In this document: positions 655 to 50,868 of the stretch, piece by piece
Numbering within the stretch: the stretch's first letter is position 1
Layout of the letters: the number at the start of each line of letters is the position of its first letter
NCBI GenBank assembly: GCA_964016885.1
Contig: CAXHJY010000114.1
Coordinates: 62,001 to 126,000 of the forward strand
Source of the DNA: Eledone cirrhosa
Lineage: Eukaryota
Length of the DNA: 64,000 bases
Reading direction: 5' to 3'
The notes under the pieces: generated by a model
Databases searched by the model: none
What the model saw: only the letters and a program-made list of their open reading frames with translations
What the model was told of the DNA's origin: nothing
Translations under genes and position numbers: made by a program

Positions 655-693
655 TGAACCTGAAGATTGCGAAAGCATGAAAGTACTTGTTCA
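655..693 (+). ncRNA. Minimal type I hammerhead ribozyme (PLE-type)
   Basis: tgaac-CTGAAGA-t-tgc-gaaa-gca-t-GAAA-gtac-TT-gttca: 5-bp stem I, intact core, short stem II, palindromic loop 3 (GTAC). Lies in a ~230-bp insert between (TA)n tracts. Confidence 0.75.
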
Positions 694-1379
694 ATTAACA
701 CTTAACATTTAATATTCTACCATACTATTTCATTCTAATACCATTATAAATTTTAAAGGATTGTAAATAAAACGAGTAAATCAGACAAAGTTGGAATTCC
801 TCTTATTAATATAATCTTCCATACACAATCATACACACCCGTGTATATTTATCTATCTATCTATCTATATATCTATATCTATATCTATATATATATATAT
901 ATATATATGTGTGTGTGTGTGTGTGTGTATATGTAGGTATATGGATATATATATATATATATATATGTATACACCACAAAATAAGAGAAAAAAATTACCC
1001 ATTGCAGAAGCTACTGCCAAGATTTTTTTGAGAAAATGAAAAAAAAAAAATGTTTTCTAATGTTTAAACTCTTGGATTCTGAGAATCCTTTGGCTCTTAG
1101 CCTTTAACTTTTGACAATTTTCTGAATTTTGGAGAGAAAAGAATTTTTTCTTAGTTCCCCTCCACAAAAGTATCTTTAACAGACAGGCTGAAGAAGACAC
1201 ACACAAAAACACACGCACAACAAACCCACACATACACAAACGTGTTTGTGCATGCATATACGCACACACATGTGGGTACTGTTGTATATACACCCTCACA
1301 CTCTCTCTATATACATATGTGTATATGTGTGTGTGTGTATGTATGTACACATACCAGCCTACCACAGAATTTAGCTCCT

Positions 1380-1845
1380 ACATCGCCTATCTTCCTTTGA
1401 ACTATTGACCACTAGATTAAACAATACGTTCACAGCATATTTTTCAAATCAACTTCCTCCATTACAAAAAAACAAATACTGTTCTCATTTCCAACCAACC
1501 CTTTCAACAAGAAGGATGGAAGAAAAATTATTCAAACATTCGATTTTGATTTTAATTTTGATTTTAATTTTAAACCTTTATTTTTTTTACTGCTATCAAC
1601 TCTTTTTAATCTTTTACACTACGGTATATTTGACAAGATGGATTTTAATACATCGAAACCGGTAATTTTTTCATATACTTTATATATTTATAAAAAAAGT
1701 TTTTTAAAAAAGAATTGCCCCTCTCTTTTTTTAATAACATTATATTTTTAATAACACTATCTTTTCAATAATGTCACTTTGACGAATCAAAAAAGAAAAA
1801 CAGACCCTTAAATATATTTCCCGTGCTATTTCCGATTTCATCTTT
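1380..1845 (+). mobile_element. Decayed Penelope-like 3' end with degenerate hammerhead (1630-1664)
   Basis: TTGACAA-gatg...catc-GAAA-ccgg-TA (two substitutions from CTGACGA); upstream peptide TLSTRRMEEKLF is loosely like a PLE GIY-YIG C-terminus. Confidence 0.4.
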
Positions 1846-1893
1846 TCTCTCTCTTTCTCTCTCCCCTCTCTCTCTCTATATATATATATAGAG

Positions 1894-2073
1894 AGAGGTG
1901 TTATTGGAGAATTTATCTAAATGCGTCAAATATTCTTAACGAACACGTCGTCTTATAGTCTTATATATATATATATATATATATATATATATATATATAT
2001 ATATAAGACTATAAGACGACGTGTTCGTTAAGCATATTTGACCTATTTAGATAAAATCTCCAATAACACCTCT
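1894..2073. repeat. Inverted repeat, ~69-bp arms around a (TA)n loop
   Basis: 1894-1962 is the reverse complement of 2005-2073 with a few mismatches. Confidence 0.9.
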
Positions 2074-3029
2074 ATATATTAAATATGTTCAATATAATTG
2101 CATATTCATATATTTAATGTCGCAGTTTGTGTAGAGAATGTGGTCATGAGTTTAGAACAGGTCAATTACTGAGTGACAACACATTTGCAATGGCGAATGT
2201 GACAAGGGAGTATAGGATGGTGCGGAACAAATGTCACAAAAGACTTCTTTCGATGATGAAAATGATGGGGGTTTTGTTTGTATTCACCGACTTTTAAGTG
2301 TATAGCTTTTTGGTTCAGCTTACGATCGTGAAGTTCATGAGTTCAATTTCTGGTGGCGCGTTGAGTCCTTAAACAAGACCATTTATTTCACGTTACCTCA
2401 ATGTACTCAGTTAACAGTTACTTATCTTTATCACAGACATGCCAGTGATAGCATAAATCAGCGAAACCTCTTCTGGTTGTTCTTTAACCCATCAAATCGA
2501 CCACACTTGCACTAATCTACTGGTTTATACTCATGGGAAAGTTAAACTATGCGTAAACACATATTCTCAGTGATCTTAAACTAAACCATTATGTATTTTC
2601 AATAATTAATATTTAATCATTTCTCTGTACTAATTCTTACAGTTGAAATTAAAAGGTATTTTTATGAAGAATTAATCTATATTAAGCTGTTATTATTTTG
2701 TTTTCAGAGATTAAAGTTTTAAAATATTCATTCATATAAAACTAAACTTAAAATGATTTTCATTTGGAAAAAAATCATCATCTAATTTATAATTAAGAGA
2801 TAAACAAGATCATCATATAATTCGAAATATCATATAAACAGATGGAAACAATATGAAAAATATGTCTGATTGCTAGTATGAGAGCAGTTGGATGGTTCGC
2901 GAAACAGATATATTCTTGGCAATAATTAGATTGAGACTTAGGAAGGAAATAGCAGATCAAAATTTAATATGATAAATGTGTGAAGTATTGGTGAATTTTA
3001 TGCACATATTTGTATTGTATTGTATGATT

Positions 3030-3305
3030 CCATAACTCCTGATAGAGTCGTAAGGGCACCGTATTGACATACGGTGTTTCTCGGGCATTTTAAGCCTGGC
3101 GGAGCCCATCCCCATCCAGGCCTGAGTACAGCAGATTTCTTCCAGAGAAAGATAGAAAGTGAGAGAGAGGAAATGAGAAAGAGATATAGAGGATGAATCT
3201 ACCCCAGTACTAGACTAGCACTTTCTTATCAACCTCGAGAAGATGAAAGGCAAAGTTGGCCTCGGTGGGATTTGAACTCAGAGAGCAAAGAGCCGGAACG
3301 AATAC
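3030..3305 (-). mobile_element. Composite old SINE: tRNA-SINE body, (CT)n linker and ~120-bp 3' module
   Basis: Same arrangement recurs at ~3935-4215, 16545-16850 and 41692-42130. Confidence 0.55.
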
Positions 3306-48428: not shown

Positions 48429-49060
48429 TATATATATATATATATATATATATATATATATATATATACACACATACACACACACACACACACATATATA
48501 CATACATATATATATATATGCACATATATATACTTATATACACACATATATATATATATATACATATATATATATATATATATATATATATATATATATA
48601 TATATATATATATATACACATATATATATACACATATATATATATATACACACACATATATATATACATATATTTATTTTTTGTTTATTTATTTATTCAT
48701 ATACATACATATACCTACATATATGCATACGTATATCCGTATATATGTATGTGTATGAATATATATATATACATATATACATATATATATACACATAGAT
48801 ATATACATACACGCACACACACATATATATATATATATATATATATATATATATATATATACATATATACATCTATATACATATATATACATATATATAT
48901 ATATATATATATATATATATATATATATATATATATATATATATATATATATATATATATATATGTATATATATATATGTGTATATATGTATATGTATAT
49001 ATAAGTATATATATATGCATATATATATATATATGTATATATATATATGTATATATATAT
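48428..49060. repeat. Compound (TA)n/(CA)n microsatellite
   Basis: Read directly. Confidence 0.95.
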
Positions 49061-49174
49061 TTATTAAAATAACAGATTAAAGTTTAAGCAAAGAATCGCT
49101 GCTTTCACCCTTAACGGGATCTTCTGAAGCTAACAAAGTCAATCTGTGACCGCAGAAGTGAATATTTAAAAAAA

Positions 49175-49512
49175 CGTTACAACCGGAGGAGGACAGGAAG
49201 ACGATACGTTGGTTCGTGGAAACGTTCCCTGGCAAAGAACGGGAAAAAACGAATATAATACGACAGGTTTGCGGTCGTTCCCCTGGCAGTGGAAACTTCT
49301 GGTGTCCTCGGCCCCAGGGCTACCTCCTTACTCACCACCATAGGCACTGAGCTGACCAGTCGTAGGTGTGAGCCTTGCGAGTTGGAGTGGCTTTTCCAGC
49401 GCGTCTCCCTTGCCGTCCTCCGGGGAAACGCCTTCTCCATTCTGTCCGCCGAGGCTGTAGGTGGGCCCCATCGCGTATCATTACATTAGTTAAATACCAT
49501 ACTTTCATCTCA
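49175..49512 (+). mobile_element. CRE-clade retrotransposon 3' fragment
   Basis: FAVVPLAVETSGVLGPRATSLLTTIG..EWLFQRVSLAVLRGNAFSIL; followed by (TA)n. Confidence 0.82.
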
Positions 49513-50251
49513 TACATATATATATATATATATATATATATATATATATATATATATTAATATATTGTGTGCTTATTCAGTTGATGCTTGGCAGTTTCTG
49601 TGCTTGATTATACGTCATATGTGGAGCATGGAGAACAATTGCACGCAAAGACAAAACCACGTAAATGGTATAATAGAAATCGTAGACTAAAATTCTAACT
49701 AGGAGACCGAATGATTCTCGGCTTCAGAGTTAAGAATAAAGTAAATAAAATACAGAGGTAATTGAAATTAAATAAATACATATACTCATCCATGATCGTA
49801 CATACACAAGTAACGCGAAAACACTCGCTATAGGTATACAAATACACGCACATATAAATATGTGTGTGTGTGTGTGCGTGTATACAAATAATTAAATAAA
49901 CGTATATAAATAAATAAATACGTATATAACAAACGCACGCACATACCCACATGTAAATACACAAAAGTTCGGAGACGTACGTCAACCAAAACACGAAGTA
50001 TACATATACACGCACCCTACATACGTATGAACCCGCATACTCACACAGACGCAAAACTCACGTATACACATAACCAAAAGCATATGTACCAGAATATATA
50101 AAAATATACGCCATAACATATACAATCAAATATACGTACGAGAATGTATACGTACCTTCACAAAACATACAGGTAATACATACTTACCTTATCGAGCCCT
50201 CTTTGGATTTTAGTCTTCAAATTTATTATTATTACTATATATATATATATA

Positions 50252-50442
50252 GGGCGGTGAATTGGCAGTATCGGTAGAGGGTTGGACGCCATGCTTTGAC
50301 GCATAGAGTTACGGCCCTTGCAATTCTGAGTTCAAATCCCGCCGAGGTTAACTTTGCCTTTCATCCTTATGGGGTCGATAAAATAAAGTACCAGTAATGT
50401 ACTGGATAATTGCTGGCCTTGTGCCAAAAGTAGAAACAATTA
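50252..50442 (+). mobile_element. SINE family A, full length
   Basis: gggcggtgaattggcag...agaaaca; attactatatata duplicated on both sides. Confidence 0.9.
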
Positions 50443-50496
50443 CTATATATATATATATATATATATATATGTGTGTGTGTGTGTGTGTGTGTGTGT

Positions 50497-50868
50497 CTGG
50501 TGGTAGCTAAGATGCTTCCATAGGCGGTATGCCGGTTGAGCACTCTATGTTCTTACAGAGCAGAGTATGATAGAATAGAAAAGGAAAAATCAGTGATGTA
50601 TCTGAACTCAATTAATTGTGTGTTACAATTGTTTTGCAGGAGGACAGCTCGAGACGCGATCATTGTGTGGATCTGTCTGATTCTGGACCCACAGGTTCGT
50701 CGGACACGTCTAATGATTTCGGATAGACGTGTCCGTCGAACCTGCGGGTCCAGAATCAGACAGATCCACACAATGATCGCGTCTCGAGCTGTCCGCCGAC
50801 GAAACAATTGTAACACACAATAAATTGAGTTCAGATGCATCACTGATTTTTTCCTTTTCTATTCTGTC
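50497..50868 (-). mobile_element. Fold-back element with ~143-bp arms plus tail, between microsatellites
   Basis: 50569-50712 pairs with 50724-50868; GAAACAATTGTA (HHR 3' half with palindromic loop) at 50801-50812. Confidence 0.75.

Follow-up and report, generated by a model that had tools for sequence, protein, structure and literature searches.

The hammerhead-like motifs in this stretch of the Eledone cirrhosa genome appear to mark the terminal repeats of Penelope-like elements (PLEs) and three non-coding head-to-tail units lying in TA-rich microsatellites. The many short hairpin copies are likely to be run-off cDNAs ending at the capped start of an uncleaved RNA, and to this reading as a whole we assign a probability of about 0.78. 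PLE ends with hammerheads, insertion into (TA)n and retrozyme-like units make up a picture that has already been published (PMC4209133, PMC8557442); the new point is the pile-up of 5' ends at a putative RNA start in five families. The window, i.e. the whole stretch of DNA analysed, comprises 64,000 nt (assembly GCA_964016885.1, contig CAXHJY010000114.1, positions 62,001-126,000, forward strand).

Hammerheads and repeat families of the window

A descriptor scan of the window for type I hammerheads identified complete folds with cores at 660, 17310 and 43073 and, on the minus strand, at 8483, and these four matches at a score of at least 10 compare with 0.12 ± 0.32 (maximum 1) in 100 block-wise dinucleotide shuffles. 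The first three bear out the original prediction of intact hammerheads at 655-693, 17306-17352 and 43068-43146; the fourth had been overlooked. Ten repeat families, where roughly nine had been expected, together with one further family (J) without a complete fold, account for every site named in that prediction and for 8409-8489 on the minus strand, and all the named sites lie inside repeat families or adjoining (TA)n. The copies in the window are as follows.

620..847, plus strand: family A, 5'-truncated 3' end of a putative Neptune-type PLE; type I hammerhead at 655-693, with a cut predicted at 688/689
1058..1850, plus strand: family B, 3' UTR and end of a putative Neptune-type PLE; hammerhead 1630-1664 with U3:A8 core and 2-bp stem I
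8156..8503, minus strand: family C, ~629-nt non-coding head-to-tail unit, truncated in this copy; hammerhead 8409-8489, complete
17253..17441, plus strand: family D, hairpin insertion in (TA)n, end of a putative Hydra-type PLE; inverted arm 17253-17315, sense arm 17306-17441, hammerhead 17306-17352
17482..17564, plus strand: sister subfamily of D; hammerhead 17497-17548, in which G12 is mutated, follows a short inverted piece
18613..18797, plus strand: family E, hairpin insertion; hammerhead represented by its 3' half only
19586..19797, minus strand: family E, hairpin insertion; both arms stop within stem II, at the pile-up site of the family
22204..22252, plus strand: fragment of the D superfamily, cut inside stem II
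23360..23545, plus strand: family E, end of a putative Hydra-type PLE; complete U3:A8 hammerhead 23436-23530
42650..42745, minus strand: family E, tail-only fragment
42740..43327, plus strand: family F, full ~470-nt non-coding unit; unit 42859-43327, inverted arm 42740-42859, hammerhead 43068-43146
43392..44323, plus strand: family G, non-coding head-to-tail unit; unit 43650-44323, inverted arm 43392-43573, hammerhead 43972-44056
44335..46114, plus strand: family P, GIY-YIG end and long 3' UTR of a young, putative Neptune-type PLE; minimal hammerhead 45990-46028
46221..46295, plus strand: family J, piece of a ~500-nt head-to-tail unit; 5' catalytic box without a complete fold
48219..48427, plus strand: family H, hairpin insertion, end of a putative Hydra-type PLE; cut downstream of the family hammerhead, no ribozyme in this copy
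50497..50868, minus strand: family I, hairpin insertion; hammerhead-like 3' half (GAAA, palindromic stem III, UA)

The type I order of core CUGANGA (or its U3:A8 form), GAAA and UH was found, with a complete fold, in nine families (A, B, C, D, E, F, G, H and P), in which helices I, II and III are able to pair, stem I being just 2 bp in B and P; families I and J have catalytic boxes, and a complete fold was sought in them and not found. Several motifs that had been described as mutated or as half-motifs are natural variants or run-off ends, not decay. The G8A change at 43972, seen in one of 32 G copies, and the loss of G12 at 17497 do stand as mutations; the motif at 1630 has the U3:A8 core kept in 25 of 30 B copies, and that at 45995 is the commonest form of P, 16 of 28 copies being identical across it. 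As for the half-motifs, the fragment at 22204 is indeed cut in stem II, and the motif at ~19690-19780 is a half because both arms stop at the E pile-up inside that stem; 23490, on the other hand, belongs to a full U3:A8 hammerhead with its core at 23441 (the E core is kept in 27/32 copies), and GAAAC at 48324 is no part of the family H hammerhead, which is placed ~170 nt upstream of the point where the window copy is cut. Some of the sites also belong together: 17306, 17497 and 22204 form one superfamily, and 18613, 19690 and 23490, with the tail at 42650, form another, separate one.

These hammerheads are predicted to self-cleave. A scan against Rfam, which had been proposed as a check, gave no matches at gathering thresholds and, at E<=10, no hammerhead family among the best 150 of 271 matches. 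The full three-helix hammerhead is the lowest-energy fold for the 8409-8489 motif only (z -3.2), single-strand folding being uninformative for six of eight motifs. Covariation inside families is thin: one double (compensatory) stem change in A, none in C, E or H, and seven in stem II of F among 37 copies compared. A CG to UA change in stem III of G occurs in 9/32 copies and was equalled in 3 of 500 shuffles, with relatedness not controlled; it concerns a single pair and is probably one inherited change, and a compensatory swap in stem I was seen between D subfamilies. An HDV-like reading of family D was rejected by eye.

Extension of the inserts toward a reverse transcriptase (RT) and GIY-YIG ORF, a second proposed check, was successful for six families and confirmed the suspected link to PLEs. 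Longer genomic copies of A (L339), B (L347, L348), D (L450), E (L451, L454, L460), H (L455-L457) and P (L333, L336) have, upstream and on the same strand, a PLE reverse transcriptase with a C-terminal GIY-YIG domain, and the window pieces of these families are therefore truncated ends of autonomous-type elements. The view that all the inserts are non-autonomous holds for F, C and G only; family I (50801) is probably a Hydra-type PLE as well, and has an RT fragment at one locus (L349). A repeat upstream of the ORF, i.e. a pseudo-LTR, was found in P, E and H, and the inverted 5'-truncated arm and one-sided tail that characterize PLEs are present.

Clade assignment follows the motif definitions of PMC8557442. 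On these definitions A, B and P are putatively Neptune, with DKG, a CX4CxxC linker (clade definition CX2-5CxxC), CCHH in the endonuclease and Pfam matches to RVT_1 and GIY-YIG, and D, E and H putatively Hydra, with a CxCX5C linker, RW[KR], no CCHH and (TA)n insertion; DKT was found at E, H and I loci, the D locus being without that region. The Hydra-type frames were not recognised in the Pfam scan, and a homologue search gave no informative names and no named reference proteins among 120 listed of 1350 matches.

Non-coding head-to-tail units

Just F, C and G (43068, 8483 and 43972) appear to behave as non-coding retrozyme-like units. Their longest ATG frames are 25, 79 and 43 aa, respectively, no ORF link was found in about 60 loci each, and the repeat period is 471-480 nt in F and 625-639 nt in C. 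Consecutive hammerhead-bearing units with 2-3 cores occur at two C loci (L185, L201) and one G locus (L231), and none of the F loci fetched has at least two. The head-to-tail joint of F was also identified in public contigs (three contig sets, one sample), which speak to presence and joint only, and no RNA data set with family F was found among the public sets listed. It is predicted that these families depend on a borrowed PLE protein; no sequence link from F, C or G to the reference ends of the ORF-bearing families was found beyond one 27-nt match at E 0.008. A PLE ORF upstream of one C copy (L350) was treated as a separate insertion, since a TA tract lies between the two.

In these three families copying seems to continue beyond one unit length, as expected for a ribozyme-made circle or for a multimer. 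That the templates were linear multimers, read through from tandem loci without a circle or any need of cleavage, is a serious alternative that we nevertheless hold to be the less probable one. The tandem loci are such as it requires, and repeats inside one locus are no more alike than repeats of different loci (F 98.0 vs 98.4%, C 98.8 vs 99.4%; no result for G), so this test gave the circle no advantage and did not separate it from the multimer. Against the multimer, the hammerhead cores and stems are conserved, and the F and C units as circles fold far better than shuffles (z -9.5 and -4.1), as retrozyme circRNAs do (PMC7229834); the G circle folds no better than shuffles (z -1.2).

Copy ends and the putative RNA start

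The 5' ends pile up at one site in five families, D, E, A, H and I. Counted from the core, 24 of 40 D ends lie at -7..-4, 19 of 30 E ends at +33..+46, 13 of 31 A ends at -47..-40 and 7 of 30 H ends at -8..-4, and 16 of 30 I ends lie at -105..-94 from GAAA; the samples were drawn with 3'-end queries as the top 30-40 matches per family, which favours young copies; for H and I the queries, of 128-144 nt, extended beyond the bare tail, and a few of the loci counted are duplicate copies or represent both arms of a single insertion. The window copies of A and D both begin at the pile-up of their family, the former 31 nt below a TATA box. A TATA-like box precedes the pile-up at -29 in D, -31 in A, -30 in H and -31 in E, against backgrounds of 17%, 8%, 6% and 4%, in a test made after the pile-ups were known and in AT-rich DNA; the pile-up of family I is without such a box.

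An extra G stands before the D start in 14 of 24 ends, the long element having C there, and was seen in 3/16 ends of A and 0/7 of H. In L1, an extra G is a mark of cap copying (PMC11702581). Fold-back from the other arm can explain some of the extra Gs.

A pile-up at the predicted ribozyme cut was also looked for in the arm ends and was not found: arms within 4 nt of the cut number 1/67 in D, 1/48 in A, 0/43 in H, 0/31 in P, 1/50 in F, 0/30 in C, 0/48 in G and 3/53 in E. This rarity fits the internal priming on uncleaved RNA described in vitro (PMC11167929). We consider it likely that the pile-up site is the RNA start, and hence that the ribozyme is usually uncut when the RNA is copied. Family P has no 5' pile-up like that of A, D, E, H and I, and an apparent cluster of its ends near -319 merely reflects where the retrieved sequence stops. 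Six of 31 P ends lie 5-13 nt downstream of the predicted cut.

The pile-ups might instead arise from RT stalling or cDNA fold-back at the base of a hammerhead helix, or from trimming of the RNA by a 5'-3' nuclease, which we regard as unlikely but far from negligible. The D and H pile-ups fall on the opening bases of stem I, many of the D junctions form micro-hairpins, and the E site lies inside a small hairpin within stem II. However, the A pile-up precedes the core by 44 nt, F, C and G fold into stronger hammerheads yet have no pile-up or run-off point, and what is constant across four families is the distance to the TATA-like box, not the position in the fold.

The 3' ends are fixed, and (TA)n adjoins them within 18 nt in 245 of 272 copies (P 61/61, D 40/40, E 30/30, F 24/24, C 26/26, G 20/21, H 29/30, I 15/30, the remaining 15 of I adjoining (CA)n; 19 copies running into a next unit were left out), against 14% of 20,400 random flank 18-mers and 29/131 and 24/116 ends of a SINE-like repeat, in agreement with the predicted targeting of TA microsatellites. 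In ORF-bearing copies of E and H the same fixed point continues into the ORF leader via a short TA-like overlap. It is improbable that (TA)n is a tail made by the element and not its target. Its near-universal presence at the 3' end and the templated overlap would suit a tail, but (TA)n also adjoins variable 5' truncation points (15/21 truncated C copies) and the outer ends of inverted arms, and is missing where the end continues into the leader or a next unit.

Inverted arms begin at a second fixed point and were found in 27/40 D, 23/30 E, 13/30 H, 19/30 I, 17/31 A and 0/31 P copies, four low-complexity inverted matches (L093, L100, L261, L576) being left out of the tally. The original model of about nine independent non-autonomous ribozyme RNA families describes F, C and G well, and copies of the other families are mostly short and non-coding; as a general account it is nonetheless very improbable, being contradicted for A, B, D, E, H and P, whose short copies are variable truncations of elements with collinear RT and GIY-YIG ORFs. 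Least probable of all is that the short palindromes are MITE-like master elements multiplying as a unit: many D copies do share a centre and are 99-100% identical, but that sample was biased by its query, and with a tail-only query junction filler and arm lengths vary per copy, solo and long forms existing as well.

We return to run-off cDNAs, primed internally and extended to the capped start of the RNA, as the likely nature of the short hairpin copies, because of the pile-ups, their distance to the TATA-like box and the 3' end that runs into the ORF leader. The terminal repeat would carry the promoter, and the mRNA would be ordered as cap, hammerhead, tail, priming site and ORF. The endonuclease would cut (TA)n, and the RT would prime internally, about 50-100 nt before the start codon, copying just 135-330 nt before meeting the cap; the cDNA would then fold back, or join a second arm primed on the other strand, to give the palindromes. 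Long copies would require priming on a downstream repeat, a template jump or a circle.

In its most general form, for which we put the odds only a little above even, the proposal is that PLEs prime RT just inside the leader of their own capped mRNA, that what they most often produce is a run-off cDNA of strong-stop type, which integrates as a tiny hairpin, so that the genome records the start, both priming sites and the uncut hammerhead of each family, and that non-coding circles escape run-off while using the same machinery. If so, the E start inside stem II would leave the mRNA with half a ribozyme at its 5' end, completable only by the far end of the RNA. Minus-strand strong-stop DNA of LTR elements is primed near the RNA 5' end by a tRNA and runs off at the cap. 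The likeness lies in these two steps and is a functional analogy only, the PLE product being, on our model, target-primed and directly integrated, without tRNA primer or LTR.

Relation to known elements

PLE pseudo-LTR hammerheads are known as many unrelated families per genome, mostly in solo truncated copies, and opposite-strand pairs, the U3-A8 core variant, palindromic helix III and 2-bp helix I have all been described (PMC4209133, Cervera & De la Pena 2014). The window resembles that description in each of these respects. It differs in that families are tied here to their own ORF or tandem unit, with truncation points mapped, and in that several have stem II insertions of 40-75 nt and stems III of 4-7 bp (cf. 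PMC4209133). With the Hydra and Neptune EN+ PLEs (Craig et al. 2021, PMC8557442) our families share, besides the clade motifs, the C-terminal GIY-YIG, (TA)n insertion, the inverted 5'-truncated arm and the one-sided tail; unlike those elements they have long simple-repeat 3' UTRs, and arm offsets are 24 to 160 nt compared with 30-40. A 5' pile-up at a putative start site was not found described in the parts of PMC8557442 consulted. The run-off model had no match in the literature searched, a scope without most subscription papers, Repbase and supplements, and the supplements of PMC8557442 may include families of this kind.

What the PLE hammerhead does and how pseudo-LTRs regenerate have been treated as open questions (PMC8557442, PMC7761336, PMC2377424), and the end maps predict exactly the start sites, the priming sites and an intact ribozyme on most templates. 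In vitro, the RT of Poseidon PAc begins at two fixed internal sites, by which the tail is defined, on an AT-rich target and with uncleaved RNA as the main template (PMC11167929, Frangieh et al. 2024). The families described here are alike in their two putative fixed internal priming sites, AT-rich target and putatively uncleaved template. They differ in where priming would occur, namely before the start codon and with a short TA-like overlap instead of at a non-homologous site inside the ORF (PMC11167929), and in that the putative short run-off product is found inserted in the genome.

The F, C and G units resemble non-LTR retrozymes (Cervera & De la Pena 2020, PMC7229834; Li et al. 2026, 10.64898/2026.07.22.740005) in being non-coding, in their head-to-tail arrangement and in having a single type I hammerhead; F and C are, in addition, predicted to pair strongly with themselves, as retrozymes do (PMC7229834). 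No sequence match to a PLE partner was found, and the units measure 477-700 nt, compared with 170-400 nt in PMC7229834 and 51-972 in 10.64898/2026.07.22.740005. The copies of F, C and G are dispersed, each one unit plus a fraction long, and bear integration marks of the PLE type, namely (TA)n and a fixed priming point, joined in F and G by inverted arms, and on F and G these marks support PLE-driven mobilisation along a line different from the published phylogenetic one.

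Hammerhead folds in the window and their families

Four complete type I hammerhead folds were recovered by a type I descriptor in the (TA)n-rich window of this 3.0 Gb genome, with cores at 660, 17310 and 43073 on the plus strand and 8483 on the minus strand, compared with 0.12 ± 0.32 complete folds at equal score in 100 local dinucleotide shuffles. The first three are the hammerheads that the original prediction had called complete at 655, 17306 and 43068; the minus-strand core had been overlooked. The Rfam scan proposed along with it returned no match of any kind at gathering thresholds, hammerhead models included, and hammerhead was absent from the best 150 of the 271 matches at E<=10. 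The hammerhead-bearing feature of the window is real and of known kinds. Many hammerhead families per genome, mostly on truncated Penelope-like elements (PLEs), with opposite-strand pairs and a U3:A8 core variant, have been described (PMC4209133), and multiple families, truncated PLEs and U3:A8 likewise occur in this genome. Already published, too, are the (TA)n targeting, inverted arms and tails of PLEs (PMC8557442) and the link of retrozymes to PLEs (PMC7229834, PMC7761336 and a 2026 preprint, 10.64898/2026.07.22.740005); the main text of an octopus repeat annotation (PMC13282606) uses neither the word hammerhead nor ribozyme.

Self-comparison of the window identified many of the predicted sites as palindromes and grouped several of the sites together. 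Each site was used as query against its own genome, giving 64 first-look candidates for family A (655) and 880-2820 for the other families, figures that are not copy numbers; per search, 40 candidates were scored and at most 30 loci kept. Three sites had been underrated: the U3:A8 core of family B (1630), described as mutated or incomplete, is kept in 25/30 full copies; the supposed half-motif at 23490 lies in a copy of family E (23436-23530) with a complete U3:A8 hammerhead, a core (23441) found in 27/32 full copies; and 45995 has the commonest form of family P. The sites 17497 and 43972 (family G) are indeed mutated copies, and the half-motif at 48324 belongs to a family H copy (48219-48427) truncated downstream of the family hammerhead. 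Family I (50801) has GAAA, UA and a palindromic stem III, with a CUGAUG box about 230 nt upstream and a potential 10-bp stem II; A9 and stem I are missing. Family J (46221-46295; also L542 and L116) is a head-to-tail unit of about 500 nt in permuted order (GAAA-UA, 4-bp hairpin, CUGAUGA) without a clear adjacent stem II. The stems can pair in all nine complete families, and double-sided changes were observed in stem III of G (9/32), in stem II of F (43068) and between subfamilies of D (17306/17497), being almost absent in A, C (8409-8489, minus strand), E and H.

Carriers and (TA)n targets

The proposed extension toward an RT and GIY-YIG ORF succeeded in P, A, B, D, E and H, whose longer copies reach such frames on the same strand; in family I an RT fragment is joined at one locus (L349). 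In the frames of A, B and P, DKG and CCHH accompany a CX4CxxC linker; those of D, E and H have CxCX5C without CCHH, with DKT and RW[KR] observed in E and H. Judged by these motifs, diagnostic of Neptune and Hydra, respectively (PMC8557442), the former are Neptune-type and the latter Hydra-type; Pfam RVT_1 and GIY-YIG were confirmed for Neptune-type frames only. No ORF was reached from any long copy examined of F, C and G, which are non-coding units with periods of 471-480, 625-639 and about 700 nt, and whose long copies continue into the 3' end of the preceding unit. The F head-to-tail joint was found again in public contigs of one sample. Folded as circles, F (z -9.5) and C (z -4.1) were better than shuffles and G (z -1.2) was not. 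Non-autonomous RNA families, as predicted, thus hold for F, C and G and fail for the six ORF-linked families, and the count of roughly nine independent ones was too high.

Targeting of TA microsatellites was borne out: (TA)n follows the fixed 3' end in 245/272 copies of eight families (A and B not counted, 19 copies entering a next unit set aside), versus 14% of random flanks and 21-22% for a SINE-like repeat, and 15 family I copies adjoin (CA)n instead. The variable 5' end of truncated C copies also adjoins (TA)n (15/21), which makes (TA)n the target of insertion, not a tail. A stretch of 3.7 kb (42620-46300) has copies of five families (E, F, G, P and J) one next to another in adjoining TA tracts. 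Many further hammerhead families, including tandem ones and a group with TATTTTAT-like stem I, appeared in a descriptor census of the flanks of fetched loci (1.97 Mb, L001-L625), a sample skewed to TA-rich sites.

Other repeats in the window
1880-2086, 42456-42543 and 28347-28442: further palindromes; the centre of one is a (TA)22 tract
57590-62830 (+): two-ORF non-LTR retrotransposon, AP-endonuclease/RT frame uninterrupted (1153 aa)
28274-33865 (-) and 55042-57093 (+): two decayed relatives
13586-15355: 46-bp minisatellite, 38 copies
20357-21118: four-copy tandem of an abundant SINE-like repeat of about 190 bp

End maps and a putative mechanism

Ends were mapped with 3'-end queries, both arms (the sense and inverted halves of hairpin insertions) being placed on natural long copies. 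The start of the inverted arms is a second fixed point, and in several families many copies share one 5' end (a pile-up).

Inverted-arm start (mostly, nt before the 3' end) and 5' pile-up by family
A: 24; 13/31, about 44 nt upstream of the core
D: 66-78; 24/40 in a 4-nt span where stem I begins
E: 77; 19/30, inside stem II
H: 160; 7/30
I: 73; 16/30
F: 101; no pile-up (densest 10-nt window, 5 of 30)
G: inverted arms formed; no pile-up (3 of 30)
C: no inverted arms; no pile-up (2 of 30)
P: no inverted arms; 5' ends mapped, no pile-up

In D, A, H and E the pile-up is preceded, at a distance of 29-31 nt, by a TATA-like 7-mer (backgrounds 4-17%), and none was found upstream of that in I. Of the D ends, 14/24 have a G before the start, at a position that is C in the long element; some of these extra Gs stand in both arms of perfect hairpins, and part may come from fold-back. 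The extra G is not clear in A or H. Few ends lie at the predicted ribozyme cut, with 0-3 arms per family. Where an ORF is present in E and H, the sequence reads on from the fixed 3' end via a short TA-like overlap into a leader and start codon, and one D locus continues similarly for about 30 nt.

We infer that the terminal repeat holds a promoter, for which there is precedent in Penelope (PMC2377424), and that the mRNA would run from cap through hammerhead, tail and priming site to the ORF. The RT would then prime internally at two sites and run off on reaching the cap, which would account for the tiny hairpins and the family E half-motifs. PAc in vitro likewise primes internally at two sites, with uncleaved RNA as main template (PMC11167929). 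For long copies, the RT would have to prime on the downstream repeat, jump templates or copy a circle, and F, C and G may act as circular or multimeric templates borrowing PLE protein. No description of such run-off was found in the literature searched; what the end maps contribute is a mechanistic hint that can be tested.

In family P (L556-L579), no copy begins inside the hammerhead, and the start of 6/31 copies lies 5-13 nt 3' of the predicted cut; these six are possibly trimmed cleavage products. Immediately beyond the priming point, D, E, H and the non-coding unit of G (L460, L455, L456, L053 and the G joint) have similar bases, namely TAT and then AGC and pyrimidines; this likeness, judged by eye, could represent a shared RT signal.
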